Of a stretch of 64,000 nt of DNA, positions 14,154-61,750 are shown in pieces. Made by a program: the position numbers and the translations under genes. The first letter of the stretch is position 1. The number at the start of each line of letters is the position of its first letter. The notes below the pieces were generated by a model that saw only the letters and a program-made list of their open reading frames with translations, did no database searches and was not told where the DNA came from. The stretch covers positions 310,001 through 374,000 of the forward strand of contig RSEE01000060.1 of the NCBI GenBank assembly GCA_003971905.1, written 5' to 3'. This DNA is from Moniliella sp. 'wahieum' (Eukaryota).

Positions 14154-17100
14154 GGAGGAGAGGATCGACGGTGAGGCTGGGGATGGGGATGACGGTGCGG
14201 GTGCGGGTGAGGGTGAGGAGGACGAGGAGGAGGAGGCTGGGGAGGAGGATGGAGATGGTGAGGACGAAGCGGACGAGGGCGGAGGCAGGTGCGGGTGCTG
14301 TCTGGAGAGTGCCTCAGCCACGCCCGACTCGCATGCCCCACCTCCTCCTCCTCCTCCCGCCGATCGCAGCGCGCCACTCGCCTCGTGCCGCCCCATGTGG
14401 CACCACTGCCCCCGTGCCTCCAACCCCTCCCTGTGGCCCCGTGCCTTGCACCCACCAACCCTACAGTCTGGTTCACAAACTGCCCCCGTGCTCTCGTTCT
14501 CTTCCCCACACCACGCCTGTCATGCTTGCTATCGCCCGTCGCGCTGTGCCCATCCCAGATCAAAATTAAAGGGAACACAGTGTGCCCCTCTTTCTGGACC
14601 GTGCCGTTCTGTGGTTGTATAGATGGATTGTGCCTTCTCTTAGTCCGTGTCCCCCTCAATACCACACCGCGACATTCTTCCCGTTTGATGCCTTGTCCGC
14701 TTCTCCCATCGCTCCCATCTCGGCTCGGCCACGCGGGGGCCTCATCGTGTTGTTGGACATAGTAATCGCCCAGAGACGCTCACGCCATGCACACCTGCAC
14801 TTCTTGGCATGGCGCTATTGGCGAGCGCTCAAACGGGCACAGAAATAGGAAGCCCCCCAGGAGTAAGTTGCCCCCGGATGGGGTTGACGACAAGAGGGCT
14901 GTGGGTCATTCGGCTCGAAAACCCGCTGTATTTTGCTTGTACCATCCCCATGATGGCCGCCAGGTGTCTGCGGTTGCCAGTAATAGGTGAGGCCCACATG
15001 AGCCGCATCTGTCTCATAACGAACTATTCGATCCTTCCCTTCCTTTCTGTCCTTAGTCTCACCTTCTATCTCTGGGCTTAGGAGTGCATGAAGGCGCACA
15101 AAAGGCACTACAGTCTTTTTGGTGTGTAACGCCCTTGAGCATCTCTCACTTCGCCTTCTGTTATAACATAATATGGAACTAAGAGATGGTTCTCGATGGC
15201 GATGACACTCTCTAATTAGCTGGCGATCCCCCTCGCATCTCTTCGCTGGCACAAGAGGGAGCAAGGAGGTCTAATCACTCCACACTGTCCTCATCAGATA
15301 TGTCAGCAGACTGTGTTTTGACGTCACGAACGATCGAAGAGAGGTTTTTCTATCTCATGTTTTTGGTATATAAACACAGAGCACCGTACTTTCAAAGCAC
15401 GTACAATCGCGGGGACAGAGAGAGCGACGGGTATCGAGATCCATGTCACGGTCGCACATCAATACTACGACGGTTCCGTAACATTCAATATGCAGTCAAA
15501 ATCCTTCCCCATCTCGGCCGAGAAGAGAGCTCTAGGTAGTGTTAGGTGTTGATAATGCATACCACTCGTGCCTAGGCTCCCAGCGTATCGAGGGTGTAAG
15601 ATTACAGACCCGTCCTGGAGTGGGAAAAAGACGTTTATACTAGGTTTTAACGAGACACCAAGATCGTATCGATCAGAGAGGGGACATCCTATATATGTCA
15701 CTAAGCTCACACGCTATATACAGCCCTGATACATGATAGTTCTTGCGGCCTTACAACGGTGATATGGATGTGTTTACCACAGTTATATATATGGGAGCAG
15801 TAGGTTACATATGATAGAGGCCATACCAACCAACTGTCTTCGTATGACATAGATTGAGCGATGTTGATCGACGGAGGATGGCTGATGATCGAGAAGAGAA
15901 CATGCGCTTGTCCACACCACTACGTGATTTATATTCAAGTCTTCACCTGCCCATACACTTCGATCGATTGACGGGTAATCGCATGTGGGGGGAGTATTTG
16001 CTCTCGGGGCCGCAGGTACATTTGTTTGTTACTTCCAAGGCAGGAAAGTCAAAAGGGGGAACCGCATGGTTCCCTGGTGTCTCTGACGGAGCAAATAGAT
16101 AACAGAAGAAACAGAGTATATATCCAAAACCAAGTTGATCGATGAAAGTACGGCAACGGGCTCTCCACAGCATTTTTTGTGATGATTTAGCGCACCACAC
16201 GCTCTCACTAATTAACCAATCTAGTCAGGTATTCTTGTTTGACAGAGAGAGCAAAGCACGCAAAACCTCTCTATACGGCTCTCCAGGCCCTGGTAGTGCA
16301 GAGGGGGCGGAGTTTGAGGGAAGACTCTGTGGGGCCCATCACAAAAAAAGTGTATCTCATGAAGCCCATGAGGTCTGAGAGGGTCAGGTCTGAGGCATGA
16401 TGCATGATGCATGACATGCATGACGCGAGACGCCATTACGCATGACGCGCCAGAGCAGCTCGCACCGATCTCAAAGATGATCTCGCCTGAGGCTCAGGTC
16501 TGAGGGTCTGAGGCCTGAATGTCCGACCCTGAACGTCTAAACAGTCCGACGGTGTTGTGTGCGACAACGGACAGAAGGCCGGTCGCAGGTTCCGAATCAC
16601 GGCGGGGTTAGTGCACATGTCGATGAGAGGCGAAGCTGTGCGAAAAAGGTGATTTGTGCGTGATTGCGTGGTTATGATTTAAGCACTCAGGCTCAGCGTG
16701 CTAAGTAACTAGTAATGACGTCAGGGTCACCGGTCACCGTGACTTTTGCTCCAGCATTCCTCTTGGATATGGCGGATTCGATGATCTCTGTCGTCGCGTC
16801 GTTGTTGATTGTCCTTTCGCCTAGTATAATTCTCGCTTTCACCTGGCTTAGCTGCCATTCCCGATGGCTAGTGTTCAATCATCTTAATCGCCAGCGATCA
16901 CGCGCACGCGGCACGTATGGAGCATCCTCCTCCCCTTTCGATGCCCGCCCACGGTCGCTTCGAACGCCCCCGATCGGCATGCGTCTTCGGGATGGTTTGC
17001 GGAGACGGGCTCTGTCACCTGTGTGACCTGCTGTGATGGCTGTGACATGTGACATGGGGGATACCAGGCTGCCATTGCATCATACCCGATCATCGATCAG

Positions 17101-17992
17101 GGTACCCCCCGCAGTCTCCGTAGATTGCGGGGGGGGGATGGGAGGTCTGTAGCACCTGGTAGGGCAGGCCTTGAGCCTCAAGCCGAGGCAAGCTGGAAGT
17201 GGCAACAGATAATTATCGATCACCGATTACCGGTACCGTGCATCCTTGACGCATGACGCGTGACGAGTGATCTCGAAGTGATCGTGCCTCCTCGGTCTGA
17301 AGACTCAGTTCTTCCTGGCTTGGCTGAGGGCCAACGCTGAATTCAACCAACCGCACTCTTTCCGGGTGAGCAGATGACGTGGGCGATGGCCCCTGCGTTC
17401 AGCGCCGCGCCGCCCAAGGCTCCGCAGTGACGTCGTTCGACGCTCAAACCAGGAGCTCTGTTCTATCGCTGCCCCTCGTGCATTCCTCGCAACAGCTACA
17501 ACAGAGAGGCCGCAAGCCAGATCCATGCGGCTGTATCTCGTCTGCTGCTGAAGCAAACTCACGTGTTGACGACTGGTCTGGTCCCGTTGGGGGCAAGTGG
17601 CCATCCGATACATACCTGGGCCAGCACGCGTGCGCTCTCCTAGCTGTCGACCGCAAGCAGGCCGGCACAAAATGCTGTGAATCGCAGCCGGGGGATGCCT
17701 GAGAGGGTCTGAAGTCTGAGGTGATGCTGTCGGTGATCTCTGAGCGATGGCGTCGCAGCACAACGTGCTACTGTAGGCCCAAGCGCGGTCCATGGACTCT
17801 GGGGTCTGGTGGCTTCTCGTCATCACACCACACTCAGTGCTGGCGTCGCGCCATCCTGTGGCTGTGTCAAGTTTCTAGATTGGTGCGCTCCCAGCGCTCC
17901 CTTCTCCGCCTCCAACTCGCTCTCTTCTCTCTCCCGTTCCATCAGCTACCACCTTATATACTCCTCCATCCACCCCGACCCGCGCACGCAAC

Positions 17993-20986
17993 ATGGCCAC
18001 CTTTGTCGACTTGATTGCCTTCGTTGTTTTCATCCTTGTTCTCCTCGTCATGGCCTCAAAGATCTCAAGTAACGCTGTACGTCTTCTCCTGAGTTTCGAT
18101 GATTGTTCAGCTTCTCGACCGAAACAAGATCGAACAAGATCCTAACCCTGGCTGGATCTGTGCAGCAATCCAAGGTTCCCCCCGGCACCGAAGGAGCTGG
18201 CACCGCCACCACTTGGACCGAGGCGGCAGGCAACGCAGCCTCCTCTGTCGCTGGTACCGCATCGAATGTAGCCCAATCCGCTGCGCAGACTGTCGGCTTG
18301 AGCAGCACCCAAGACCAAGCCACCGCGGCCGACACTGAGCCCGCTTCGAAGAGCAAGTCTGAGACTAAGGATGGGACCAGCCCCTCCTCTGGCTCAGAGG
18401 AGAAGGAGAAGACCGGCAGCAAAGGATCGGAACCGGGAGTGACTGTCGAACAGCGCGACGGATGCACTGTGATCAATGGTGTCAACCTCCAGAAGAACTT
18501 GGGACAAGGCAGTGGTCTTTCAGCTCCCTCGGGTCCAGCCCATAAGACCGATTCAGAGCCCAAGGAATCCACTTCCCTTTCGGACAAGTCCCAGCACAGC
18601 GGCACCAACTTTCGAGAAGTGGCACGGGTGCCACAGGCTCGACCGGCACGGCGGGCACCGCAGCCACGACGGCCACGACGGGGGCAGCCGGTGCCAAAGA
18701 TACCAGTTTGGCCACGTCGGGTTTCTCCGAAAAGGATCTCAAGACGAGTACCAAGTCGGTTCCTCAGTACCCCAAGGGCGATCCCTCTCTCCAAACCTCG
18801 CCCGAAGAAAGCATTTCTGCCGCCCAAGGTTCGAGCAAGGCCTCTGTCCCGCAGTCTCACTCGACAACTGGGGTGAACGGTTCGGCCCTCGGTGCAGGTG
18901 CCGGATCGACTACCGGCGCAGCTACCGGTGCGGCGGCCGGCACAACCCATTCTTCTGGAACCACCGCTGGTGCTACTTCGGGCGCTGGTGCGTCCCCAAC
19001 GCCGCGTCGGGCACCGGTGCCACCAGCAGTGGTGAACCCTCCGGGGCAGGCGCAGCCAGCATCACTGGTATTGCCACCGGCGCGGCAGCCCCCACGGCCG
19101 AGAAGGTGGCCCAGTCGGAACGTGAACGTGCCGCTGGCAACTCGGCTTCTCAGGGTGGCATCCTTAGCGGCATCTCGAACAAGATTGCCAGTGTCACTGG
19201 CTACGGAACGTCCTCCACTGAGCCCACGTCGCAAGTTGGTTCGGACGCGCACGACTCTACCGCCAGGTCTACCGGTTCGACCGGAGACGCCGCTACAGGC
19301 GCGTTGGGTGGTGCGGCTGGTGGCGGGGCGTTGGGGTACGGTGCTGACAAGGCACTGCACCATGGCGAGTCTACGGGTCTGGGCCAGAAGGCCGAGGGTT
19401 ATGCCTCCGAGGGCAAGACAAGCTGTCCTCCTCGGCTCCCGGCCAGAAGGCTGAGGGATACGTTTCTCAGGGCCAAGACAAGCTCCCTTCGAAGGATGCG
19501 CACCTGTCTGGGCTGAAGAACAACATTTCTTCGCAGCAGGGCGCGTACCCTTCCACCACTCAGGCCCCCGGCTCGACGCTCCCGTCCACATCGGAGGCGA
19601 CGTCAACGGATCTCGAAGGTCGTGGGTTCACCGGCGCGTCAGCCCCGACCACCAGCACGGGGGCGACCGAGCAGCCCTCGGTGCTGGAGCAGGCCAAGGA
19701 AACAGCGTATGAACTTTACGAAAAGGCGACCGAGTTTGTTCAGGGACATCCCTCTGAGGGCGCCGCCGTTGGGGTCGGCTCGGGTTCGCAGCCGGTGCTG
19801 GTGCCGGGGCCGGGGTGGAGCACGGCGCGGACAAGGTTGCGTCACGGGAGATTCCTAGTTCGTCAGACACCGCCACGCACACCCCACCTCGGTGGGAGAG
19901 GCAGACACGTCGGCTCAGCAACCTTCGTACCTTACCCAAGCCAAGGAGAAGGCGTATGACCTGTACGAAAAGGCCGTTGGACAGAGCCCTTCGGATACCA
20001 CCGACGCCGGTACCACGGGTGCATCGGGCACCTCCGACTCTGCTGCGACGGGAGCAGCAGCAGCGGGGCTTGCCGGTGGGAGCGTAGGCGCCGGCGCGGA
20101 CCACCTCACCTCTGGCCAGACGGGCCACCACGCTGATCTTTCCTCGTCCAAGACAGGCGAGGCTGGGTCTTCCGCCTACCCGTCTGCCACCAAGGGACTC
20201 GGGTCCGATCCCACAACGGCAGGGGCAAGTAGTGGTGTGACTGGGAGCAACCCGATCTCGGACGTGGCAGGTAGCCAGACGGCCGCGCCTACCACGGGCC
20301 ACCAGAGCTTTACCGGGTGGCCGACAGTACCGCCAACAAGTCCACAGCGGGGACCGGGTCGGGTTTGGGTGCAGGTACAGGTGTAGCTGCCGGTGCCGGT
20401 GCCGGTGCGGCGGGTCTAGCTGGGTCCGGAGCTGCGGGAACTGCCTCGGGTGGAACCAGCAGCGGCAACGGGGTGGCATCCAACTTGGCCCACAGCAATC
20501 TCGCCTCGCAAGGGAAGAGCGAGGGTGAGAACGTCCTGTCCCAATCGAGCAACCCCAAGGATGCCCTGTCCACGGCGGAAAAGACGGCTGGGGGGAAGAA
20601 GGAGGGGCTGACCAAGGACGTTACCAAGACTGCTTCCGATCTCAAGTCCGACCCGACCAAAGGCGTGCAAGAGGCCGGTAACTACGCCCAGCAAGCTAAG
20701 AGCGAGTTGGGTGGAGCCGGCAGTGCTGGTGGTGCTACTGGGGCTGGCGGTGCTACTGGGGCTGGCGGTGCTACTGGGGCTGGCGGTGCTACTGGGGCTG
20801 GGGCTGGGGTTGGAGGTGCGACGGGAGCCGGCACCCGGTGGCGAGTATCTCTCTGGACTTGGGCATGCGAAGGGCGGGGCTGAGCATGAGGCAAAGACGG
20901 CTGAGAGCGAGGGTGAATCAGGTGTCAAGAAGAGCCACAAGCTCAAGGACGAGCTCAAGCATATCAAGGACAAGATCCTCCACTAA
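17993..20986 (+). CDS. Large Gly/Ala/Ser/Thr-rich LEA/hydrophilin-like stress protein with an N-terminal hydrophobic anchor; frameshifted
   Basis: Exon 1 MATFVDLIAFVVFILVLLVMASKISSNA; phase-0 intron 18077-18165 (GTACGT, CTAAC at 18142, CAG) joins in frame to QSKVPPGTEGAG. Repeats LEQAKETAYELYEKA / LTQAKEKAYDLYEKA and GQKAEGY x2; C-terminus KKSHKLKDELKHIKDKILH stop. Confidence 0.75.
20731..20802 (+). repeat. Coding 18-bp tandem repeat (GGTGCTACTGGGGCTGGC)x4 encoding GATGAG
   Basis: Read directly; matches GGATGAGGATGAGGATGA in ORF 20317-20883. Confidence 0.95.
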
Positions 20987-23932
20987 CTGGAGTGCCTCCT
21001 TTGCTGTGAAGAACCATTTTCTCCTGACGCACTCCGTGTCTGATTTCGAGTGTACATCCTGTCTACCATTTGACTCCTGTCGTGTTAGTATACGCCATAT
21101 TGTTGATCTTTCTGCTCTATACTTGTCCTCTCGTTGGTCGTACGAGGCATCCTGATAGTAGTCTACAGTGAGTATAAAGTAAATGTATTAGCCCCAACCT
21201 TCTAGAACGCAACACAACCGTAAAGAAGCTACATAGTACATTCCCACTATGCATTCTAGGTTGGAGGGAGTGAGTCTGGCTCCCACAAAGTAAATCTCTT
21301 GCTCCCTAGACAACCCCATCTTACCTTGAGCACCAGATGCACTCCACCAACTGTGTTCCAATTTGTATTTCGCTCATTGTTTCTTCCGCGCCACGGCATT
21401 TCTCTCTCAACCAGCAATGGCAGAGCCAAAGAGGACTCAGCTATTACATTCCACCCCCAACAGCAGAGTGCAGTTTCCATTCGCTTGGAGCCAGGGATGG
21501 CGCGTATTAACAAGCGAAATGTGTATACCCTGATCCGAAAAGGGGGTGCGGGGGAGAGGGCGCCTGTGTGCCGGCAATGTGGATGACGCAGTTTATCTCC
21601 CTGTTTTAGTGCCTGTGTTAAATTTTGCTCTTTAGAAGTCTTCATGAGGCTCGCCCATCCATGGATCTTTATTGTACACCGTGTTTTGGTCCTCTCGGCC
21701 GGGGGTTCTTCCAATGAGCATCCTCTAAACCCCCAATGGCCGAACGGCATATATGGCTTCAAAAGGACCGAGATCAACCTTGGTCACCATCTTATATACG
21801 TCTGGCGCTTTTGACCAGGAAGAACCGACAGAACGAACAATGCTGACTGAGAGGCCATTAAAGGGTAGTAGTGTGGGTTAGGAAGCCCCCCCCTAGATAG
21901 CCAAAATCCCAAAACGTGCGATGACTCTCCAGTGGACAATAAGAGCACAGTGGGAAACTGTATCCAGACACCTTGTCTGATACCTCTTCCACTTCGTTGA
22001 CACATGTGGGGTAGTCTATCGATTAGGAGCAGGTTGAACGGTGAACGAACAAAACGATTCAGAGCGAGAACTGAGTACTGGTGACTATTGACTGAGGGTC
22101 ACATGGCTCACCGGCGCGAAGACAGATGTATAAGACGAGTAATAGTGCAACAGACGTGAAAGGGAGAATGGAGGTAGCACCTAAGCAGTGTCGGCGAGGA
22201 AGCAGACCTGACAAATCACATCCCTTCTGCACTGTTCTATCCGACTCTCCTTTTTGTTCTGCCTCTGACGGACTCCTCTTTTGGAATGCTACTACCCTCA
22301 TCCCTCTCCCTTCATACACTACCAGTTCAGATATACAAAGCTCCCACAAATGAGCACCAAACGTCGGTGGTCGGACACTGTGGGGAAAACAGTATATATC
22401 ACCTTCAGAAGAGCAAACACCAGTGCATACACTGGCTGCTTACGCGCGGCCTACGGACCAAGATAAGGTCACAGGTGATGGTCGGACCATATACCGACAC
22501 GCGATCCTCTCCCCATGGCTTCATTTCCAGTTGCGTTTTGTCTCTGGATCAAGAGAGAAACTGTAGGTGTGGAGGGAGAACGCATATACTTTGCCTGGTT
22601 TGCCTTCCGCGGGGTTCGGCACCTGGGCTTGCGCTCCTTTCTGGCATCTACATATTAACAGAATGTGGAGAGAGAGCTAAGTGGTAAGTATGTAGGTGTG
22701 GGAGCCTTACGGGCCTATACGAGTACGCTCAGGCTCTGATTACTACAACAAAATGCTCGCGGCGAGTGACATGATGAAGGTGTTATGGATTGCCAATTGC
22801 GGCCCAAACCACCTGTCGCGGCATGTCCCTGGCCGATTGCTGAGGAGATTGAATGTTGATCTATGTTACTTGGTCTAAGGTCTAAGATCTAAAGCTAAAG
22901 GAAGAGGTCCTCAGCCTGCGGCTATCGACTATCGTTTTGCTCAGGGCCGGATCTGTGGGGCCTCAGGCTCGGGGACTGAGGATTCAGGCGCTGAATAAGC
23001 ACCCTGTTTCAATTGGGACGGGCAGCGTCCTGGAATCCACTTCTACACGAGCCTGACCCTGCTTGACCTACCGTGTCTGCGTCTACATATGCTACTTCGC
23101 ATAATACTTGCCATATGTCACACTACAGGTCACGTCATGCTAACCAGGCGTCCCTTTCTCGCCTTGTGCTGAAAGTCATTTTGCCGAACCCGACGCACGA
23201 TGAGCTGACCATTATGGTAGGGAAGGTATAGGGCCGACGAAGAGAGGGGGGGGGGGGTTGGTGGCGACACGATGTGTGCTACTATCTCCACAGCACCGAA
23301 TGTGCTGGGTGCTGGACTACCGAATCGCCACCGGCAGCAACTATAATAGTGGTGGGATGGTGCTAAATATCTCCGCCAGAGGCACAATTGTAGAGAGGGC
23401 TGAGGGCTGAGCGGTCCATGGATCCACCACGTGCAGTGCGCTGGGTGGGTGGGGGGGGGGGGGGGCGCACGAAATTGGGTGTGGCAAGACCATTGAGAAG
23501 ACAAGTAAAAGTACAGGTACAACGCTTCGGGCGTATGGATGTGCCGGGGGACCAGCAGGGAGATGGAATGGAGAGGTTTGGGAGGATGAGAGTGAGCTCC
23601 ACGGCCCAGACGAGAATGGTGGGCGGGAACGTCGTGAGTGGCGTAGCGAGATTCGAGATTGCAACGAGGGCGGGCCAACGTGGATCCTGACGGCCTGATG
23701 ATCGGGAGGTGGTGTAGCAGATCAAAAGAACAAAAGGGCGCGTAAGGACGGGGGTATCCGTTCGGCCCTGGCCGGGCGATGAGACGAGGGGGATGAGGTC
23801 TTGAGCCAAATATTAATAAGCAGACTGCTGATGGGAAAAGAAGGTGTTAGTAGGGGAAGAGAAGCAGTTGAACAAGCAAGAGAGTTGATTGAAGCGTGGA
23901 AGGGCCAAGAGCGGGAAGACATACAAAGCGCA

Positions 23933-24037
23933 TCAGTGCGTGTGACGCATGTTCATCATTGCCTTGCAATAAGGACAGCGCTTGTGGCTCGTGTAGTCCA
24001 CGAGCGCCTTGCAGGAGGGGCACTGGAACCATTTCAT
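23933..24037 (-). CDS. 34-aa zinc-ribbon microprotein MKWFQCPSCKALVDYTSHKRCPYCKAMMNMRHTH (CxxC-x11-CxxC)
   Basis: Intact ORF from ATG 24037 to TGA 23933. TATATAA at 24260-24254; upstream intron 24155-24055 (GTGCGT/CTGAC/CAG) ending 17 nt before the ATG; 3'-UTR intron 23924-23828 (GTATGT/CTAAC/CAG). Confidence 0.7.
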   Translation of the reverse strand: MKWFQCPSCKALVDYTSHKRCPYCKAMMNMRHTH

Positions 24038-24253
24038 CCTCGGGGACTGAGGTGCTGTGGACGCAGGCGAGGGCGCAAGGTCAGCTAGGTGCCGCCACCG
24101 GAGGATGGGGAAACAGGCCGGCGGAGAGGGGGATGAAGGATCACGAAGGACGCACAGTAAGTGTTGGTGGCGGGAGGCGGTGTAGTGCTTTTGGTCGAGG
24201 CAGACGGGCAGAAGAGATGGAAGCTGCTTCGAGGCGTTGGCATCGGGCAGGGG

Positions 24254-24260
24254 TTATATA
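24254..24260 (-). promoter_or_regulatory. TATA box of the zinc-ribbon micro-gene
   Basis: TATATAA in a GC-rich context, about 100 nt upstream of the first splice donor. Confidence 0.55.
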
Positions 24261-27200
24261 GGCAGGGCGGGAGAGAGGGGCAGAGGGCGTAGCAGGCAGC
24301 GCCATTCCGTGATCGTCCAAGTTGGCGCCACTTGTGGCAGAGATCGATTATTTCGGACAGGGCGGCTCGGACGATCGATGAGTGGATATGGGTTGGGTTG
24401 GAGAGGGGATGAGATTGAGAGGCGGCTTCGCGCTGCTGAGCCGCTGTCAGGGCCTGCTGGGCGCTGGGCGCTGGACGCTCCAAGCTCCGAGGCTCAGGCG
24501 CTCACGTTGAGGCGCTCAGGCCTCAGGCGACGCTCCAGGCAAGCACGCGGAGGGCTGTTTTGGTGCGGTGCACCCTGGCCCAGGGGTGTTTCAGCGGGTG
24601 TGGTTCCTGACCCAATCAGGGATCCTGGGCCGAATCATCCATCCAGCTGTGACGCGTGGTACCGATGATCCGTCACGCGTCAAGCTTCAGCTTCCCGCTC
24701 CAGCTTCAAGCCAGACACTGATGTCGATGACTCGTTGCTGCAGATTCTTCGTCCCGAGCCAGTATACCTCCCGTGCGCCCGCTGCCCAGTCGGCTGACAC
24801 GCCGATTTGACATCCATCTCTTGCGCCGCTGGCCGAGTACGGAGAGTGAGAGTGTATAGCGGTTTGAATGTGGCCCGGCAAGCGCGGAGCCCCAAGAGTG
24901 GCGGGCGGGTTGGGCGTTGTTGGCGCTGGGCGCAGTGCGTGGTGTGCACTGGCCGCCCCGTCGCCCGACACAGGCCAAGCAGCAGACAGACACCCCCCCG
25001 CGCGCAGCACTGCTCTGCCCCTGCCACCTGCCCCCTCCAGCCCCCGGCTGAGGCTCAGCTTCAGCCCGCGCCGCCTCACACTGCCTCCGCGCCTCGAACG
25101 CACTGGCTCGCACTAGCTCAGTGTATATATACATCACTCCGGCGGCACAAGTAGTGCGCTGGTCAACGTTCAACCCTTCGTCTTGACAGCGCCGATTCAA
25201 CTCAAGGGTTGTAGAGATGTCTTCTGTACTCACTCTATTCCTGCTCCCCAGCCACCCCCCCCCCCCCCCGCTCCCGGACCTCACATGTCACTAGCACTGG
25301 CCTGACCGCCACCCCTATGATAGAAAGAAGTATAGCACACAGCTGCGCTTTGCTTACTACCCCGTGACTAATATATAATCATTTATCCCAATTCATTGAA
25401 CGTGACCCTCGGCAAACCAAGACAAAACCATACGTTGAACACGCAGACGACCTGGTCAGGCTATCCAGTGTCTGTCCTGGCAATCACATAGGCAGTCTCT
25501 CTCTCCTCACGCGTCACGCGTCACCCACGTTCGTGACGGTCGCCTAAGAGCGTGTGTTTCCCCCTCGCCTAAAAACAGCTATTACACCGAGCAATCCAAC
25601 AATGCCGTCTCCTGTTGCTCGGCCTGAAAGCGAGCACACAAATCGGACCCCAACGACCTCACCCGCCTATTGCACATGCACACATCGTGTGGACAGAAAA
25701 ATCAGTGGCGATGTCCCCGGACCCTACACGTCATCCGCCATTCCTCCACCGCACAAAACTTCTTCTCCATACTCTCCACACAGCAGCCAGACAACAACAG
25801 CATGATGGTGTGGCCTTGGCAATGTGGGACGGCATACAGTTCGAAGATTTGGACTACAGTGGGGATAAGGAAGAGGATCGATCGGATCACGCGTCATGAG
25901 CATTATACGCTTAGCCTGAGCGCTCGTCTTCTACAGCCCAGCAGCAAAACTGATAGGATTCCACCACGCTCACGACCTGCTTGTTACACTTGCACTTTAT
26001 CGTCCTGTGTGTACAAACAGCGATACTTCGACGGCTTGGCTTGGACGAAACGCCGGAACGCTTAATGGACCCCACGGAACGCTTCGCCGGACGTCGATGT
26101 ATCGATGATGCCAGATGATCGGTGACGATGATGACGTATGATGCATGATACATGACGTGTGATGTGTGACGCGCCTCCCGATTATGGCTTGCTCCTCCAG
26201 GGGCCTTGTGGTCGTACCCCTTGAGCGTCTGGTCCAGGGGTGGTGGATCCGAAGCGGCTCAGCCTACCGCCTCCTACGGCGTGCATGTCAGTACTTCGGA
26301 CTGGGAGTACGCAGCAGTGCTTGGTACTTAGCAGTTCACCAGTGCTGGTGAGACTCAGACTGAACGTACTCAGAATCAGTACCAGTATCAGTATGCTCGC
26401 ATGTCACATGTCACGCATATATGTCAAAATGTCACGCACGCCACAGGACTCAGTCGGAGGCCTTGGTCCGAGTGCGGCCGCGTGCCCGGCGCCACACCCT
26501 CCAGTCTCGGGTTCACGCGTTCACGATCAAAATGAACATATGCACGGCCCTGCCAGCCTTGTGGCTTTCTCGTGAATCATTAATCATTAATCATTAATCA
26601 TTGCGCCATGGCAGTCCGTTGGAGCCCCGCCGAGCCCCGCCGAGCCCCGCTGAGCCCCTAGGAGCATCGTGCATCCCACATCAGATCCATCAGACCCCGG
26701 GCTCAACAAGGCACCCGGTTCACGCGTCACATGCCACATATCACACTAGCTGCAAGCTCACGCGTTCACGCGATGCAAGTGATGCCTCCGCACTGGTCCG
26801 CTGGGCAGCCAGCAAGACAGGGGGCACATGGCCCTTTTCTTCGTTCCACCTGTTCCCGACACGCTCCAGCAGGCTCCAGCAGGCTCCAACAGACGCACGC
26901 CTTTGCGATCCGCCAGTGTGCCAGGGCCCCCGTCTGTCCCCTGCGCGCATGCCTCCACCAAAGACCCACAATACCCACACCACGCATCTTCACTGCAGTG
27001 GGTCCTGCTAGTCTGCTAGAATAGGACCTGTCACATGTCATGCGTCTCATGTGTCATGCATGCCACACATGGTCACTTGCCAGCGCATCAGCAACGCTGA
27101 AGCTTGACGAACAGAGGGACGGCGGGACTGTTGATGCCATCGAGCGTGAGGCTCAGCCTGAGCGCAACGAGAAGGGTGGGCGTGACGCGTGACGACCTGC

Positions 27201-29701
27201 CGAATCGTGAGGCGCTGAACTCGAGATCTCTGAAGTGTTCTGCTAAGGATCTCAAAGGGTGTCTACAGGTGTCCCCTTGCGCGGGGCCGTGGTAGAGCTG
27301 CTGTATGATATTTGAGTTCTGAGAGACTATGTACCGGCCAGCTCATCAACCATTTAGATCTTCAGCTTCGGTCCTGTCCTGCACGGCTGGCTGGTCCTGC
27401 ACCCGTCCCTGAGCGGGCCAATGAAAATCGTCCGCGCCACACTGCGCGTCACGCGCGTCATGCATCAGGCCTCAGGCTGAGGCCTCAGGCGTCGCCGTCA
27501 CGCGTCACGAGGACACTAGTCACCGCCACCGGGTCACCACCGGGTTTTCTACGATCTAAGATCTAAAGCTCCGTGCGGCTTGAGCAAAAATCTGGTGGCT
27601 ACCAACATGTAAACGCTAAGCATGCAAGTACGGAGAAGTAATTAGTGCTTGTACAACTACGTGTCGATTCCGACCCTGACATACTAAGCCCCTCGGTTTG
27701 ACACGTGCTCTTATTTCGATCTTATTCAGCTTCAAGCTTTACCCTTCAGCTCCGCCTGAGACTGCGGGGGGGGTTAGGTGGCTAAAGGAGGCTCAGAAGA
27801 TTTCACAGATGTTTTCGCCAGGAGTACGGCATGTCGCAATGTGGCGCTCTGTGGGGCTGGGGTTGTCGAGCTGTCCATCTATACAACACGTATTCCCCAC
27901 CCACCATGCTCTTATGCCTTTCCTGAGACCCTCAGACTCAGAAGGTTCAGGGTCAGATTGAACAATCGCCTAACCCGATCTAGTATACCGATCCGACGCG
28001 CCATGCACATAGTATGTTCGGCTCGCGCCTCAGGCTGATGCATGCAGTATGGTTCGACCGCAAGACACACATGTAGGCCGCCGGCGCACCACTGGCGCAC
28101 CCCTTCCTTCGGATTGATTACTGAGATGACTGATTTTTGATTCTTCCGACGCCCCTTGTGCGCGCGTTTGCGTATCTAGATTCACCACCCTGCGCTCCGT
28201 AGGTCTCCCGCCTACTGTCTGAGTCTGACCGTGAGCGCCTAAGCGTCTGAGAGTTGGGGCTTGGGCCAGGGCAGGAAAAACGGGAGGAGTAGACGTTCGG
28301 CCGAAGGGCCAGGGGGCTGAATAATGAAAAGTGAATAGTGAATAGTGAATGCCATCGAGGGCTTGTCCCGCGCACGGGGCAACACAACCGGAAGATTGGC
28401 GGTGCTAAGTTCTGTCAAGCTTCAAGCCTTTTCAAGCTTTGGCAAAAAGCTTTTCAAGCTTCAAGCTTCAAGCTTATTCAAAACGTTTTGAGTTTCTACG
28501 TCCAAGGTCCAAGGACTACTACTTTAACTTCCAACTCCTCTGTACCCCAGATGGGTGTGGGCGCAATTAATGAGCAAGGAAGGAAATGCTACAGGAAGCA
28601 TGAAGCTACATTGACTAACTAAGCGTGAGGACAAGAGACTATCTCAGTGGGGAGCACCAGAGCGCAGACCAGCTTGGTAATGCATTGACTAACTAAGCGT
28701 GAGCTCCAGTGTAAGATAGGAAAACGGGGGGTATGACTTAATGGTCTACCATCCAAACCCTTGTCCCCACCCTTGTCCACCCTCCTGCCCAACCGCCCGC
28801 GCAAAAGCGAAGAGATGCGCCCAGGCGAAGGTGTGTGCCGCCGGCCGAGGAACCATTATGATGCCACAAACCATGTCACAGTACTAAATCTCCACCGTTG
28901 CTCCCTCTGGTCTCTTGCCGCCAATCTCGCCAAGGGTTTTCTCCTTTCGTTCTTGATTTCTTTCTTCGTTCTTTATGTTCTCTATACTCCACAAGCTCCT
29001 CGAAGCCTGGCGACGCCTCTTTTCCCGCCCTATAATATCGCCCCCCTTTCTGTCGCCTCGACGGGAGGACGGACATGGGGGCAGTGCGGGATGGATGGGA
29101 TCTCGCTACCGCTATCGTTACTGCTACGCTACCGTCTGGGCCGTGCACCATGCTTCCATCTTCTACCTTCCACCTTCTACCTTCCACCTTGCTACTTCCA
29201 AACAACGTCCACCGTCCAACTTGGCGCAGCAACGTTTCACGTGAGAGCAGTAACATTTCCCCGCCAAAAACGAGCGGGTGGTAGGAGGAACGCTACTGGG
29301 GGGCGTGCTCGTTCCCCTGGCCAAGGTCACGGCCGTACGGGGCACATGGGAGAACCACCAGGTGGGTCGCTAGGCCAGGGGAAGAGAGAGAGGGTCGTGG
29401 CGTAAATCACTAGAGGGCAAACAAAAAAAACAAATGCAGCAGCGGAGCAAGACGAGAAGAAGAGAGAGTCGTCCACGTCCCCGTAAACGGGAGGCAGGAT
29501 CAGAAGAAAAGAGAAAAGAGAAAAAAAAGGGTAAAAACAAAGGAGACGATGATCTATCGGGCGGTTGGTGCGAGAGGGCCATGAGCCAACTGAGCCAACG
29601 CGGCCAAGCTCCGACTGCAGGCGGCCGAGAGGAGAGAGGGGGGGGGGGGGGGGGGGGGAAGCAGTGTCCTTTTGTTTGGTAAGGGAACGAGCGGGACACG
29701 T

Positions 29702-31221
29702 TTACTTGCTTAAAAGCGTATGAATCTCCGAGAGGATCCCGAGGCCTTGGCGGGCAGGAGCGCGGGCTGGGTCTTCGCCCACCCGGAGCGTATCAGGCAA
29801 AGCGGGTTGGCTTGGTTTGGGTCCGGCCCAGGGGAAAGGGAGGTACTCTTGCAAGTATTCAAACGACACAAGGGTTGCGCCGAATTGGGGTGAGGAGCGT
29901 AGGACACGAGCGAGGGCCCTTGAAGAATGCTTTGGGACCTTCTTGGACCAAAATTTTGCCAAAGCAGTCGGTGATGCCCTTGTACGTGGCTTGGCCCTTA
30001 CGGGCTTCGACTTGCAACCGCGTTTTGATCACGTCGGCCGGCGTGGTGAAAAAGGCGGCGGGCATACCACTGATCGACGCGGCCGCCAACATTTCCCACC
30101 CAAACGACAGTTTCTTGCCATTCTTGCCCTCGTGAAACGTGTCCTTTTCAGATGCGCATAGGCAGGGAAGTAGATCGCACTAAATGGAATGTCCCAGCAG
30201 CACGCTCCAGCACCTTTGTACAGTCCACGAAGACCCAAGTCTTTCACAATCTGCCCGGCACCCAGCTTTTTGACCCCTTCCACCTTGGCCAACTCTCCCT
30301 GAACTTGAAGACGGATCTTGACAATCTCTGAAGGTCATACAGGTTAGCTGTCTTCCTGTCACTCATAGGGGTGGGACCCGGATGATAAGAGGAGAGAGCT
30401 GGCGCGTGGAATAGGAGAGAAATCAAATCGGAATCGGAATCGGAATGGAGATGTATATACAAAACAAAGAAGAAAAAATGTATAGAAGACGTACCCAACG
30501 GATTGGTAAAGATGACTTGGCACCCTCCCGCCGAGCCACCAGCGACCAACTCCCACTTGAGCGCAATCTCTCCTGTGTGAGGGTCCGTGGTCTTGGACCG
30601 AATCAGATCATTGACCGTCAACTTGATAGCCTTTCCGGTGCGACGCCAATGAGTTGTGGGCCCAGTCCCGAATAAAACCCGAGAAAGCCCTCGTTACGAA
30701 ACACTTTGCCAACACAGTCCAACGAGTTTTTGTACATCGCCGCCTCGCCCACGGGAGCACGCTGGTTTTGCATCCGCGTCTTGACCAGGTCAATGGGATA
30801 GACCAGCGTCGCACCGACCGATCCTGCCACGCCACCAAGCAAAGTGGTACACAGCATGGGCTAGGTCGTACAGCAAGCCACGCCGTGTTGGTGGGGCATC
30901 ACCAGGGGTAGAGGTAGAGGCAGCAGTAGACAGTGGGGTCCTTTTGGTTTTGGTTTTGGTTTTGGTTTTGGTCGTGCCCCGCCGCGGGAGGTGAAGGACG
31001 CGAGGGGGCAAAGTCATCTTGGATGGCGAGCTGGTGATGGAGGCGTGCCGGGTGAGCGGGGTCCTTGTTCTCCGCATAGCTCACCCCGCCCCCGAGCTGC
31101 TGGAAGCGGTGCAGACGCTCCGTAAGCGCGCATTGTCCCCCTCGGTGCGGAAGGTGGCAGTGAGGAGGAACGGGGGCTGCTCCTCGCACAGCAGCGGCTT
31201 GGTCTGGGGGAAAAAGATCAT
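29702..31221 (-). CDS. AGC1: Mitochondrial aspartate/glutamate carrier (AGC1/aralar-citrin family) with a short N-terminal extension; frameshifted
   Basis: [59 protein letters not shown] across intron 30494-30328 (GTACGT/CTAAC/CAG); [48 protein letters not shown]. Confidence 0.93.
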
Positions 31222-33169
31222 TGAGCGTGGTGGAAAGCCAAGACAGAACGGGGCGCTGCGTCTCCAAGAAAGGGGCAACACAAGGTCAACCTGAGCAACG
31301 GTGGGAGGGGGGAGGGGGGACACACGAGGTGGGCGGCGCACGCTAATTGCTAATCGCTAGCCGTCGGTACTGTGCGGCTTTTCCTTTTCCCCTCGGCTTC
31401 GGGCCAGCGCCTGGTTGGGCCCTTGTTTGCGCTGCTGAGCCTCAACGCTCAGCGGCTCAGTACCCCCCACAGCGACACCGCCACCGCCTATAGATAGCCA
31501 TACAGGACACACGACCCCCGCGCCCACTCCCCCTCCTGGCCTTAGCGCACGTTACGCGTCACGCGGTACTAGTTACTAGTTATTAGTTACTGGCCCCTCG
31601 GCCCCCCACACTGGCGCCAGGCCGAGGGCGGAGAGCTGCTGCGCCCACGGCGGCTGCGGCGACAAGGTACGAGGGACTATTAGTGACTAGTACCACGCTC
31701 AGCCGGAGCGGCCCCTGTGCCCTTTAATTGTTGCGGATGGCTGCGGTGTCCCCTGGCGCTGCGAATGTTCTGGTAGCTCTGGGCTCAAGGGGAGCGCCCA
31801 TCTCATCGTCAGCGCGTCAGCTTCTTGTTTGTTCCATGCAACGTGGCCGACCCAACCGCGGAAACAACGGGTAGCCCTGGGTTCACGTCGGGCATCAACT
31901 TTCAAATGCATCGAATGAGGTAGGAACGGTACCTACGCGTGTTAGTTATCCGGTAACGCGTAACGCGTAACGTTTAACCCCCGCTTCTGTTCCGCCAGCG
32001 CCCCCAGGGGGAAAAGCGGGCAGACGCCCACCCACACAGGCAGTGGCGCAGCAGGGCGCAGCAGGCGTAGGCGCCCTCCCATACCTGAAGCCCACGGGGG
32101 GTACTCGCTCCTAGCGCCTAGCGCAGCGTCACGCATCCACCTAGTAGCTCGGCCCAGTTACCATCAGTTCCGTCATTCTGAGTATTATATCCTCTCGAGA
32201 GCATGGTTCGGTGCCAATCAATAGAATACGTACGAACATGACTAGTTTGAAGCTAGCCCCGGCGCCTCTCTAGCTTTCACTTACAGTACCATCTGCTTAG
32301 ACCATCGCGACCGCAAGACCAGTCGCGCGAGCCTCTCTCTGATCGATGGAGAGGGCTATTGTTGTTGGCACAGAGGTGACGATCACGCATGTTGATCGCA
32401 GTGAGGCCTGAGGTGATCATCTCGATGATGCATCTGCCTCGCACGCTCCCACCCACGCCGTGATCAGGGGGACTGCCAGTGTAGTAACGGTAAAATGACA
32501 GTGGTACGGGTAATGGTACTGAGGTACTGAGACTGCGGTATTGAGGTACTGGCGTACTGGGGTGCTGCCGAGGGATAAAAGTAGTGTATACGGAGGCGAG
32601 ACCGGTGGGGCAACAGGGTGGAGCGGGGACAGGAAGGAGAGGAACAGGGACAGGGATAGGGCAGATATGTATGGGGTTAGGGGTTTGGTGGGGGAGAGAA
32701 AACAGACTGCACATCTTGGCCGGCAAGACGGTGTGTGTGTTCTTTTTTTGTGGATGTAGGAAGGGGAAGAGAGAGGAAAGGAGACTGGGCGACGAGGTAG
32801 AAATGGGCAAAGACAACAAGCAAAAAGCAAAAAGCAAATAGCAAAAAAGCAAATAGCAAATAGCAAATAGCATCCAGGCAGAAGAGATGATCAATGTTGC
32901 CCGGCTTTTGCCATGCAAAAATCAGTACCCAAGTGCCCAGTGAGGAAGGGCTGGAGAGAGAGAGAGAGAATCGAGAAGGCACACACTCTCTTCGCATCGC
33001 ATATTCCCCCTGGAAAGGCAGAGTGCAGGAGTGCCGACCTCACCCCGCGCTGCCACGCGCTCATAAGGGCATGGACTGGAGATGGTCATGGAGCTGGGGA
33101 TGGAAACGGGAAAAGAAGGAGAGAGAGAAGAAGAAGAAGAGGAGCAGTGTGGTGCAGCTCTTGAGAGGC

Positions 33170-36075: not shown

Positions 36076-38262
36076 ATGAAGACCACGGTGCTCGCCAGCG
36101 CCCTCCTCGCCGCGGTGGCCACTGCGCCCTGCGCCCATGCCGCCGCCTTCCCCGCCCTCTCCTCGAGGAGCGCTCCCAGCTCGAGGCAGCCACCGTCGAG
36201 CAAGTTGCCCGCGCCATTGTTGCCGAGGTCATGCTCGGCAAGCGCTCCGACCCCACCGGCACCTACGCACCCACCTACATCACCTGCCCCAGATCAACAC
36301 TACCGGTGCCAACTACATTGGAGGCTATGTGCGCAACGCCACTGGCTTTGCCCTCAACCCGGCCGAGGCCACCTACATCCGCAACCACCGCTCTGCCCGT
36401 CACGCGACTGACGACCACTGGCTCAAGCAGGCCCAGGTCGGTCTGGACTCGGTCGTGCCCGGTGGGTTTGACAACTACACGTCGGACCTGAGTCGTGTGC
36501 CGCGCATCGGCATTGCCTCTTCTGGCGGCGGGTACCGTGCGATGCTCAATGGCGCCGGTGTGTTTAATGGCTTCGACGGCCGCAACGAGACGGCCAATGC
36601 GATTGGTACTGGAGGTCTGCTGCAATTGGCCGACTACCTAGCCGGCTTGAGTGGCGGCAGCTGGCTCACCGGCTCGGTCGCCATCAACAATTAACCCTAC
36701 CACCCAACAACTTCACGACGAGGTGTGGGACTTGGACAGCAACCTCATCCTCCCCTCGGACAATAAGATCAGCTTCTATTCCGGCCTAATCAGCGATGTG
36801 CACGATAAGAAGAACTTGTCGGGAATGGCAAATGGACTGGCATCACGGACTATTGGGCTCGCGCATTGGCCCACCACTTGATCAACAATACCATGTACCC
36901 CAACTACGGTGTGGCTACCACCTGGAGCGACGTGCGCAACGTGTCCAACTTCCAAAGCTTTGCCTACCCGTACCCAATCATTGTCGCCGACGAACGGGGT
37001 ACGTTCTTCTTCTTCTTTTCCCTCGTTGGAGAACTGCGAGCAGCAGAGTTTGTGTGCCGAGAAAGGAGATGACTGACTGACGGTGCTGTGTGGCGCGAAC
37101 CAGAACCGGGCGAACTATCATCCAGGCCGAATCGGCCATCTGGAATTCACACCGTACGAATACGGTACCTGGGAGCGCAAGGTCAATGCGTTTGTTGACA
37201 TTGACCTGGCCGGGACCGAGTTTGTGAATGGTCAGCCGACCAACTCGTCGCAATGTGTGACGGGTGGACGAATGCGGCATGGACGATGGGCACGTCGAGC
37301 ACGTTGTTCAATGGTGCCTTGATTGAGTTGACCGAGAGCAAGGGCGGGGACTGATCAAGAAGGCGATTGAAGAAGTGCTGAAAGACATTGGCGATGACGG
37401 CAATGACATTTCCATCATTCCCAATGCGTTTGGTGGTTGAACCCGACCGTGTCGGAAATTGCTTCGAGCAACAACGTGACCCATGTCGACGGTGGCGAGG
37501 ATGGCCAAAACGTGCCGATCTGGCCGTTGCTCAACCCGGACGCAAGTTGGACTTTATCATTGCCGAGGATGCGTCGGCCGACGTGAGTTCCTGGCCCAAC
37601 GGAACCAGTCTCTGGACCAGGGCCAACGTTTCAACTCGTCCAACGACTTTAGCGACTATGCGTTCCCTTACATTCCTCCCATGGAGACCTTTGTCAACCG
37701 TGGGCTCAACACGCGTCCCACGTTCTTTGGCTGTCCCGGATCGCGGATCACGAACCAAAACACGTCGTTCAACGGACAACCGTCCCCGATTGTTGCGTAC
37801 TTGCCTACCTACCCCTACGGGCTTTGGCAACACGTCGACGTACAAGATGGACTATGAACGGACGAAAGCCAAACGGTGCTGGACAATGCGTTCAACGTGG
37901 CTACGATGGGCAATGCCACGTCGGGAGCGATCAATTGGCCTACGTGTTTGGCATGTGGCATGCTCACGCGTTCGTTTGAACGTTCCCACACGCCCATCCC
38001 TGACAAGTGCACTCAATGTCTCAACCTGTTCTGCTGGACGGGGTGGAAGATAACTCGGAACCAACTGCGGCTTACTCGCCCCCGATTGGCGTGCCGGAAT
38101 TCATCACCTCGGGCGGAAAGACGTTGAAGGAACCGCCGATCACGGGTGGCAATGGGTCCAATGGCGCTCCCCCGCTGGCCCCGGTTCTATCACTCTCCCC
38201 TGGGCCTCCAAGCCTTCGGTCGCCCGGCTCTCGCCGCGGTTGTCCTGGCCACCGTGCTTTAG
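36076..38262 (+). CDS. PLB1: Secreted, probably GPI-anchored lysophospholipase / phospholipase B; frameshifted
   Basis: Signal peptide MKTTVLASALLAAVATAPCAHA; TYAPTYITCP; PRIGIASSGGGYRAML; catalytic GLSGGSWL; intron 36999-37103; EFTPYEYGTW; VDGGEDGQNVP; DASAD..WPNGTSL; FVNRGLNTRPTFFGC; hydrophobic end ALAAVVLATVL stop. Confidence 0.95.
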
Positions 38263-60538: not shown

Positions 60539-61750
60539 TCAAGCAACGTTGCTTAGAACCGAGCGGGCCGTGACCTGCGGGTCAATGGCACTAAGGGTTG
60601 ATGTGGCCATGCCAAAGATGCCGGAGGTTGAAATGCAGTCACAGAAGTACCGTGAGCTGCACCGGAAGAGAGAGCTGGTGGGTGTCATAACGGCACGCAA
60701 ACGGGGAGGGGAAGGGGGGTTGGAATGGTCCGGAACTCCGACGGTGGTCTCTTTCTTCACATTTTTCTCTTCAGTCGTGACCGTGGGTGGTGTCGAGGGA
60801 GTGGTGAGGGGCAAATCTGGCCTTAACTTTTCAGGATCGCCAATTTTGTCCTTAGGGTCAAACTCCGTCGGTGATGGTGTATGGTAACCGTAAGGATACC
60901 CGCGGTGAGAACGATGGACGTGTGCGGCGTGGCGGTGGGAGGAATATAAGCAGCCGAAAGACCAATGAGCACATCCCATCCGCCCGGTACATTGTGATCC
61001 ATAAGGTTGTCCAAACGGAATGAAATGGCCTCGGTGCATCCGAAAAGGATGCCGGCGTGGTGGACAAGACTGCGTTAACGTGTGTGCAAACCTTCTCTGC
61101 CATCTCGTCCGACATGGTTGTGGAAGCGATGGCAGGGTTGGGGATGGAAGGGACGAGACAGTCTCATTGACGGTTTGTCTCCTCCGTTGCCATGTCGATC
61201 TGCTCAACATGGTCGGTTGCTTTCTCACTTACAGGGAGATTCTCCTTCGCAATGGCGCTTCTCCTGAGCCTTTTTCATGTACGGCGATTGCACCAGATAG
61301 CGTAGAACATATCGCCGTGCTTAACGTTTAAAAACTGTTGGCATCTGCAGAAGAGGATGTGGGGTTAGGGCGTGTGACCCGCATCACAAATGATATTGTC
61401 AGATAGGGTGAGGAAAACGTACCATCGCAGCGCTGAACCCGAACCGAGGGCGCAGAGATGCAGGACCAGTGGGGGGAGAGGGCTGCATCGAGGTCTTTGA
61501 AATCTGGCGGGCTGGGGCGAGGGTGGGATGAGGATGGGCAAGGGCGTTGGAGAGAACGAAGAGGGCGATGCGTTGGGTGTCAACTCATGTCCGAGTCAAG
61601 GACCTGCAGGTGAGGGGGAGCCATGGTGGGTAGAAGGGATGAGAGCGGGCACGAAGGGGAGGAGGGTGGCGACGAGGGCGGATAGAGGGGAAAAGGAGCC
61701 AAACGTTGGTGCAGGGGGAGTGGGGGGGCAGCGACGGAGAAGATTATATA
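60539..61750 (-). other. Putative spliced, lineage-specific or degenerate gene of unknown function
   Basis: TATATA near 61750; an intron with GTACGT near 61422, CTAAC and CTGCAG near 61346; downstream protein-like but interrupted frames (ORFs 60858-61115 and 60539-61228). No recognisable domain. Confidence 0.3.

Follow-up and report, generated by a model that had tools for sequence, protein, structure and literature searches.

Studies of metal-binding microproteins have so far centered on archaea and bacteria, and fungal annotations routinely omit genes of fewer than about 50 codons. By analogy, the closest known kind to the element described here appears to be a haloarchaeal one, the C(P)XCG zinc-finger micro-proteins that stand alone (PMC11241148). 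This work examines a 34-codon open reading frame (ORF) on the minus strand of a 64,000-nt stretch of DNA from Moniliella sp. 'wahieum' (contig RSEE01000060.1, positions 310,001 to 374,000), which we refer to throughout as the window. We propose, with a little more confidence than doubt, that this ORF is an unannotated and apparently orphan small fungal gene for a basic four-cysteine (Cys4) microprotein of 34 residues, behind a TATA promoter and probably flanked by an intron in each of its two untranslated regions (UTRs).

Like the haloarchaeal micro-proteins, the predicted peptide would stand alone, far below 70 aa, with two Cys-Pro-x-Cys knuckles and no other domain. Unlike the Haloferax C(P)XCG definition (PMC11241148), it has K rather than G after each knuckle (CPSCK and CPYCK); unlike the haloarchaeal cases, its locus belongs to a eukaryote and has a TATA promoter and possible UTR introns. 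The NCBIfam models HVO_2523 and HVO_0416 revealed no sequence relationship, scoring 16.4 and 15.2 bits against cutoffs of 60 and 80. For the layout of the gene, the described parallel is the UTR introns of Cryptococcus (PMC5006051): as there, the putative introns lie outside the coding sequence, one per UTR; unlike there, both UTRs of a gene of 34 codons would have one, and both introns are putative. No fungal stand-alone zinc-ribbon microprotein turned up in full-text searches of the literature, which is no proof that none is in print, and a review of the fungal hidden genome (PMC11413187) contains 0 occurrences of "zinc."

A 34-codon frame with a rare motif and a coding-like signature

The ORF translates to MKWFQCPSCKALVDYTSHKRCPYCKAMMNMRHTH, a peptide of ~4.1 kDa that is basic (isoelectric point of 9.4, net charge of ~+4.7) and stops 10 residues past its last Cys, at a TGA occupying positions 23935-23933. 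The 105-nt frame is intact; its only CCCC run has a knuckle on each side, both in one frame. The start codon at 24037 has A at -3 (context, CCGAGGATGA). It is the first AUG of the locus once an ATG close behind the TATATAA box is set aside, whether or not the first putative intron is removed. Between 24241 and 24037 there is no further ATG, even in the unspliced sequence. Two kinds of small fungal protein can be compared directly with the peptide. Lipopeptide pheromone precursors of basidiomycetes carry a C-terminal CaaX box, and the peptide ends in ...MRHTH, without such a box. Fungal metallothioneins have Cys at roughly a quarter or more of their residues, in CxC/CxxC clusters; here, Cys accounts for 4 of 34.

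GC content by codon position in the ORF is 0.38/0.44/0.82. The resulting excess of GC at the third position (GC3), 0.41, ranks second among the 321 ATG-initiated ORFs of 25 to 60 codons in the window and is reached by 0.22% of 18,258 random 102-nt windows. For comparison, the GC3 excess in Pfam-matched coding segments averages 0.13±0.16, with a maximum of 0.53. The measure picks out coding DNA, because at least 5 of the 7 other top-ranked ORFs fall, by coordinates, in or antisense to Pfam-hit regions. In a periodicity scan of 20.5 to 31.5 kb, the ORF locus was the strongest island between 21.1 and 29.7 kb, with a value (0.40) matching those of the known genes on both sides.

The second distinguishing feature is the cysteine motif, CPSC-x11-CPYC. 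A loose definition of the pair (CxxC-x8-20-CxxC) is not special, occurring in 3 ATG-ORFs of the window against 0.59 expected. The strict definition (CPxC-x8-20-CPxC) was found in 1 of 586 ATG-ORFs of the window, namely the 34-codon ORF, and in the ATG-ORFs of none of 150 simulated windows; in six-frame open stretches of the simulations, it appeared at 0.013 per window. Both the motif of the ORF and its codon-position GC pattern are beyond chance. An original prediction, made from the letters of this DNA without database searches, had described an intact 34-codon frame on an exon of its own and called it a gene; the frame is present, on the minus strand at 23933..24037, and its third-position GC signature is coding-like.

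Family membership and predicted fold

Within the Pfam zinc-ribbon group, which it resembles in having two CxxC knuckles ~11 residues apart and an aromatic residue before the first, the peptide matches several models weakly. The best is PF17848 (Zn_ribbon_ACC), described by Pfam as the zinc finger of acetyl-CoA carboxylase, with an E value of 1.5e-5 and 25.6 bits against a cutoff of 24.5, summed over two partial stretches. The better of these covers profile positions 1 to 11 of 26, and the score drops to 21.2 bits when the 106-aa open frame containing the ORF is used as the query. In acetyl-CoA carboxylase, the PF17848 domain precedes the carboxyltransferase part; unlike that zinc finger, the 34-aa frame has no carboxylase part attached to it. 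PF13248 (Zn_ribbon_3; E value of 4e-5, 23.4 bits) and PF12773 (DZR; E value of 7e-4, 20.1 bits) remained under their cutoffs of 27 and 27.3, and in all of these Pfam zinc-ribbon matches, a stretch spans merely 10 or 11 profile positions. Across 21100-29700, 92 of the 93 open frames of at least 55 aa have no Pfam match, the sole exception being the frame that contains the zinc-knuckle ORF. Searches of other resources gave less: NCBIfam returned 10 matches, all far under their cutoffs, and the best E value in a sequence search of the Protein Data Bank (PDB) was 0.24.

A single-sequence AlphaFold2 model of the peptide has a mean predicted local distance difference test (pLDDT) score of 74. It places strands at residues 4 to 6 and 11 to 13, forming a hairpin around the first knuckle, and a helix at residues 22 to 30 that begins at the second. 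Unlike a two-hairpin zinc ribbon, the modelled peptide appears nearer to a knuckle-plus-helix arrangement. According to PMC11241148, AlphaFold2 cannot tell which C(P)XCG proteins bind zinc. Structure searches had a poor yield, as expected for 34 residues: Foldseek found no match in the PDB at an E value of ≤10, and a wide VIA-align search matched 1 of 48,161 chains, at a Z of 2.0. The nearest entries in the ESM Atlas, which serve as leads only, were unnamed clusters of 32 to 36 aa (0.90), with rubredoxin-like and zinc-ribbon families at 0.87 to 0.89.

The predicted peptide is best described as a generic Cys4 knuckle module that is a member of no named family. The original prediction had called it a zinc ribbon and suggested a profile hidden Markov model search against zinc-ribbon families. 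That name agrees with the short knuckle matches in Pfam; as a family assignment it is not supported, and the model has a hairpin plus a helix instead of two hairpins. The search itself was split, with PF17848 over its cutoff for the 34-aa peptide and under it for the 106-aa frame, and both DZR and Zn_ribbon_3 under theirs.

Promoter, transcript layout, and intron-like stretches

The features of the locus are collected in Table 1. The window contains 7 copies of TATATAA, whereas dinucleotide shuffles predict 0.47 and Markov simulations of local composition 0.84 to 1.16; none of 300 such simulations reached 7. The heptamer is thus enriched 6- to 15-fold in the window. An ATG at 24243 lies 11 nt behind the box upstream of the ORF and 17 nt past the first base of that box. 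The usual distance from a TATA box to the transcription start is ~30 nt, and ATG 24243 is therefore probably upstream of the start.

Table 1. Features of the 34-codon ORF locus, in order along the minus strand (positions are those of the window)
Feature	Position	Strand	Remarks
TATATAA box, putative core promoter	24254..24260	minus	exact match; isolated AT island in GC/CT-rich DNA
Upstream ATG, alternative start for 69 aa	24241..24243	minus	in frame after splicing; C at -3
Putative exon 1 (5' leader)	24156..24225	minus	pyrimidine-rich (0.71), without ATG; 5' end inferred
Intron-like stretch 1, 101 nt, would be in 5' UTR	24055..24155	minus	GTGCGT, CTGAC, CAG
Putative exon 2, 130 nt, holds whole ORF	23925..24054	minus	bounded by two intron-like stretches
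34-codon ORF and TGA	23933..24037	minus	ATG-to-TGA frame; Cys4 as CPSC-x11-CPYC
Intron-like stretch 2, 97 nt	23828..23924	minus	GTATGT, TACTAAC, CAG
Putative exon 3/3' UTR	23200..23827	minus	pyrimidine-rich (0.57-0.71) as far as about 23200

Base composition gives an outline of the possible transcript. From 24300 to about 23200, the pyrimidine fraction of the minus strand is 0.63 to 0.71 (the 95th percentile of the window is 0.68), except over the ORF region, where it is only 0.56 to 0.57; below about 23200, it falls to 0.40 to 0.43. This composition suggests a unit of ~1 kb with a small coding island.

Two stretches flanking the ORF resemble introns. We defined an intron pattern as a 5' GTRNGT, a CTRAY branch site, and a 3' YAG at fungal spacing and length; both stretches satisfy it, as do two introns of the window that are backed by Pfam. 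The branch A lies 26 nt from the 3' end (CAG) in stretch 1 and 19 nt from it in stretch 2, where a second CAG follows directly (a NAGNAG acceptor). The donor of stretch 2 (23924) is 8 nt past the stop. The minus strand is locally G-poor here. When the 454 nt that follow the TATA box were simulated, 3.0% of cases gave one or more pattern matches and 0.025% (1 in 4,000) gave two or more that did not overlap. For a block of 1,054 nt, the corresponding values were 11% and 0.5%. Such a pair of matches is thus unlikely at this place, though it was noticed after the fact.

The introns used for comparison, 36999-37103 (+) in the PLA2_B gene (profile position 165 to 179) and 30494-30328 (-) in the mitochondrial carrier gene, are supported by continuity of the Pfam profile; they measure 105 and 167 nt and have the donor GTACGT. 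The candidate stretches, at 101 and 97 nt and with donors GTGCGT and GTATGT, appear to fit this picture, and both putative introns are probably spliced. Neither touches the coding frame. Junction-dependent decay follows a 50- to 55-nt rule, known from mammals; by that rule, a junction 8 nt past the stop should not trigger nonsense-mediated decay. A role for the putative introns as hosts of small nucleolar RNAs (snoRNAs) was considered as well. Neither has a TGATGA box by eye, and no Rfam family reached its gathering score anywhere in the window, a search that lineage-specific snoRNAs would escape. An intron finder for introns in coding sequence, meant to calibrate the splice signals, was set aside as too noisy; it gave 16 candidates, mostly implausible.

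In these respects, the sequence agrees with the original prediction, which had described a TATATAA box upstream of the ORF (now located at 24260-24254, in a window enriched for the heptamer), an ATG at 24243 extending the frame to 69 aa (in frame once 24155-24055 is removed), and introns at 24155-24055 and 23924-23828 (complete splice-type signals are found at both). The distances it quoted, 11 nt from TATA to ATG and 8 nt from stop to donor, were reproduced.

Other copies of the heptamer and of the intron pattern are recorded here as separate observations. TATATAA at 61744-61750 (-) has the same layout as the copy at the ORF locus, which favors the small-gene reading: it too forms an isolated AT island, and a CT-rich leader separates it from an ATG in CCACC context at +126. 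The remaining copies are at 17954-17960 (-), 21792-21798 (-), 25372-25378 (+), 15367-15373 (+), and 15783-15789 (-); several copies stand as isolated AT islands, and no gene is obvious behind these. The one at 25372 (+) points away from the 24260 (-) copy, 1.1 kb apart, and its first ATG is 230 nt downstream. About 12 of the 29 minus-strand matches to the intron pattern fall in 23.8 to 32.3 kb, with clusters upstream of the locus at 26274-26439, 27616-28070, and 31779-32284; only 30494-30328 is tied to a known gene.

The proposed gene and the points against it

Taken together, these features point to the following model. From the TATA promoter at 24260, transcription of the minus strand would yield an RNA of roughly 1 kb; its first AUG, at 24037, would open the 34-codon frame. 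The product would be a basic 4.1-kDa peptide, most likely folding around one metal ion, probably zinc, with a beta-hairpin holding the first knuckle and a short helix beginning at the second. Such a stand-alone Cys4 module could bind nucleic acid or a partner protein. The flanking introns, if spliced, would lie wholly in the UTRs and leave the protein unchanged. What the sequence itself shows is the ORF, its codon-phase signature, how rare its motif is, the enrichment of TATATAA, and where the first AUG lies; from these we infer transcription, splicing, translation, metal binding, and function of the ORF alike. The argument rests on the motif coinciding with a codon-phase signal and a promoter.

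A number of results weigh against this proposal. The features were picked after the locus had been seen, and any joint odds for them are post hoc. At 0.013 per window in six-frame open stretches, one or a few chance occurrences of the strict motif are expected across the several hundred windows of the genome, and the motif alone is therefore no proof of a gene. The full-codon log-likelihood score of the ORF ranks only 27th of 321 and its synonymous-codon score 28th, partly because the training set is small (782 codons) and the codon preferences are weak. The intron pattern has no discriminating power across the window as a whole, because it occurs at 44 sites against 39±7 in simulations. On the biochemical side, half of the tested Haloferax C(P)XCG proteins were found without zinc or with another metal, as reported in PMC11241148.

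Assembly quality is a further concern. Two of the window's real genes, PLA2_B (36080-38124 (+)) and the mitochondrial carrier (29862-30860 (-)), are split over frames without room for an intron: in PLA2_B, profile positions 350-419 are encoded in one frame and 429-488, only about 25 nt away, in another, and the carrier repeats lie in overlapping frames. Such breaks suggest either assembly indel errors or decayed genes. Since real genes of the window are frame-broken, the boundaries of the ORF, stop codon included, may also carry an assembly error.

No relative of the peptide was found either. A phmmer search against 1.84 billion representative sequences gave 4 matches at an E value of ≤1e-3, and the exact peptide is absent from about 15 billion predicted proteins. 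This absence is weak evidence, because frames this short are rarely called as genes. The 4 phmmer matches were rejected as orthologs: they are unrelated proteins of 122 to 844 aa that match in several stretches, 3 of the 4 are plainly repetitive, one is not even Cys4, and there was no self-hit. Two metagenome loci (L001 and L002), the only matches to a degenerate two-knuckle DNA pattern, were likewise set aside, both having been selected by the pattern itself; the match in L002 is the C-terminal end of a 134-aa protein on DNA of 38 to 39% GC and is not a relative. That protein (L002, 1207-1611 (+)) has an N-terminal part that is hydrophobic by eye and a WFQCPFC...CPYC zinc ribbon at its C-terminal end.

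As a single unverified locus, the ORF is of modest interest. If expressed, it would enlarge the fungal hidden proteome by a minimal Cys4 module of 34 residues under a promoter of its own and would offer a tractable test case, for metal binding by the peptide, for deletion and tagging, and for UTR introns tightly flanking a tiny ORF. A broader possibility, speculative and distinctly unlikely in our estimate, is that this fungus has a lineage-restricted set of genes for stand-alone Cys4 microproteins to which the locus belongs, each with its own TATA promoter and this one with introns in both UTRs. Such a set, if it exists, would parallel in a eukaryote the C(P)XCG micro-proteins of archaea, may have been born recently from pyrimidine-rich intergenic DNA, and several such orphans in the genome would bear on how new small genes arise.

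Alternative explanations

The alternative that fares best, unlikely but substantial, is that the promoter and transcript are real, spliced or not, and that the RNA is non-coding, with the 34-codon frame fortuitous or only pervasively translated and without a stable product. The shortness of the ORF speaks for this, as do the failure of the searches to find an ortholog or a family and the lack of a coding signal over most of the pyrimidine-rich unit of roughly 1 kb. Yet a GC3 of 0.82 together with two CPxC knuckles would be unexpected in a non-coding exon, and the composition passes from pyrimidine-rich to balanced exactly over the ORF. The window-wide absence of Rfam matches also counts against a non-coding RNA.

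It seems quite improbable that the locus is pure coincidence, that is, untranscribed intergenic DNA in which chance alone produced the ORF, the TATA-like heptamer, and the splice-like motifs, all picked up in a reading of many windows. Such an explanation would account for the chance rate of the splice pattern across the window, for the few strict Cys4 motifs to be expected genome-wide in six-frame stretches, and for the lack of external support from phmmer and the exact look-up. What it leaves to luck is the meeting of several roughly independent rare features at one locus: a GC3 excess reached by 0.2% of windows, a strict motif seen in 0 of 150 simulated windows, an enriched TATATAA, two local intron patterns (1 in 4,000), and the position of the first AUG.

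We give little credence to the idea that the frame is part of a longer protein, either the 69-aa form from ATG 24243 or a product read past the TGA, which would then be an assembly error. The first form would need transcription to begin upstream of the site predicted from the TATA box. Its ATG, at 24243, is indeed in frame after splicing, but the TATA box is just 11 nt away and the base at -3 is C. Exon 1 would contribute 29 codons of low complexity, rich in S/T/P as would be any C/T-rich frame, and their GC is not highest at the third position (0.38/0.72/0.66). For the second form, the real genes that change frame without room for an intron, whether through assembly indels or decay, could be called on, as could a weak same-phase GC pattern past the TGA (0.35/0.44/0.65) that is probably chance in T/C-rich DNA. 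The stretch past the TGA, however, carries complete GTATGT, TACTAAC, and CAG signals, and only a base substitution in the stop would let the frame continue, unlike the indels elsewhere in the window.

Finally, a role as a regulatory upstream ORF, with the main ORF farther down the same transcript, is highly improbable: the minus strand is ATG-free for 429 nt past the ORF region (23922-23493), like a long leader, but this stretch is merely the sixth longest on that strand and lies in pyrimidine-rich DNA, no ORF of more than 50 aa follows the 34-codon frame within about 630 nt (spliced model, down to 23200; the longest is 50 aa, in line with the earlier view that no main ORF is evident downstream), and there is no coding periodicity or Pfam match from 23800 to 21100 on either strand.

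Genomic context and other observations

The window is GC-rich, with 49 to 65% GC in 2-kb steps, and eukaryotic genes are present in pieces: Sec7, a C2H2 finger protein, PLA2_B lysophospholipase, ETF, an RRM protein, a mitochondrial carrier, and SPT23/MGA2. Because the last of these belongs to a fungal transcription-factor family, the window was treated as fungal nuclear DNA. Repeats in 21.0 to 29.8 kb are just homopolymer runs and short chance pairs, and no transposon ends were found around the locus. Long homopolymer runs of G or C, 12 to 20 nt, at 23241-23267, 23442-23468, 25252-25275, and 29633-29659 are likely trouble spots of the assembly.

Two further regions have a coding-like character and no Pfam match. 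At 25585-25893 (-), 1.3 kb upstream of the locus, two adjacent frames with a GC3 of 0.70 to 0.74 form a periodicity island, which may be an unannotated or frame-broken coding fragment. At 18100-21150 (+), the open frames are long, overlap one another, and are rich in G, S, T, and A; their GC3 periodicity is strong and changes phase three times between 20.5 and 21.0 kb; this region is probably one low-complexity gene broken by frameshifts.

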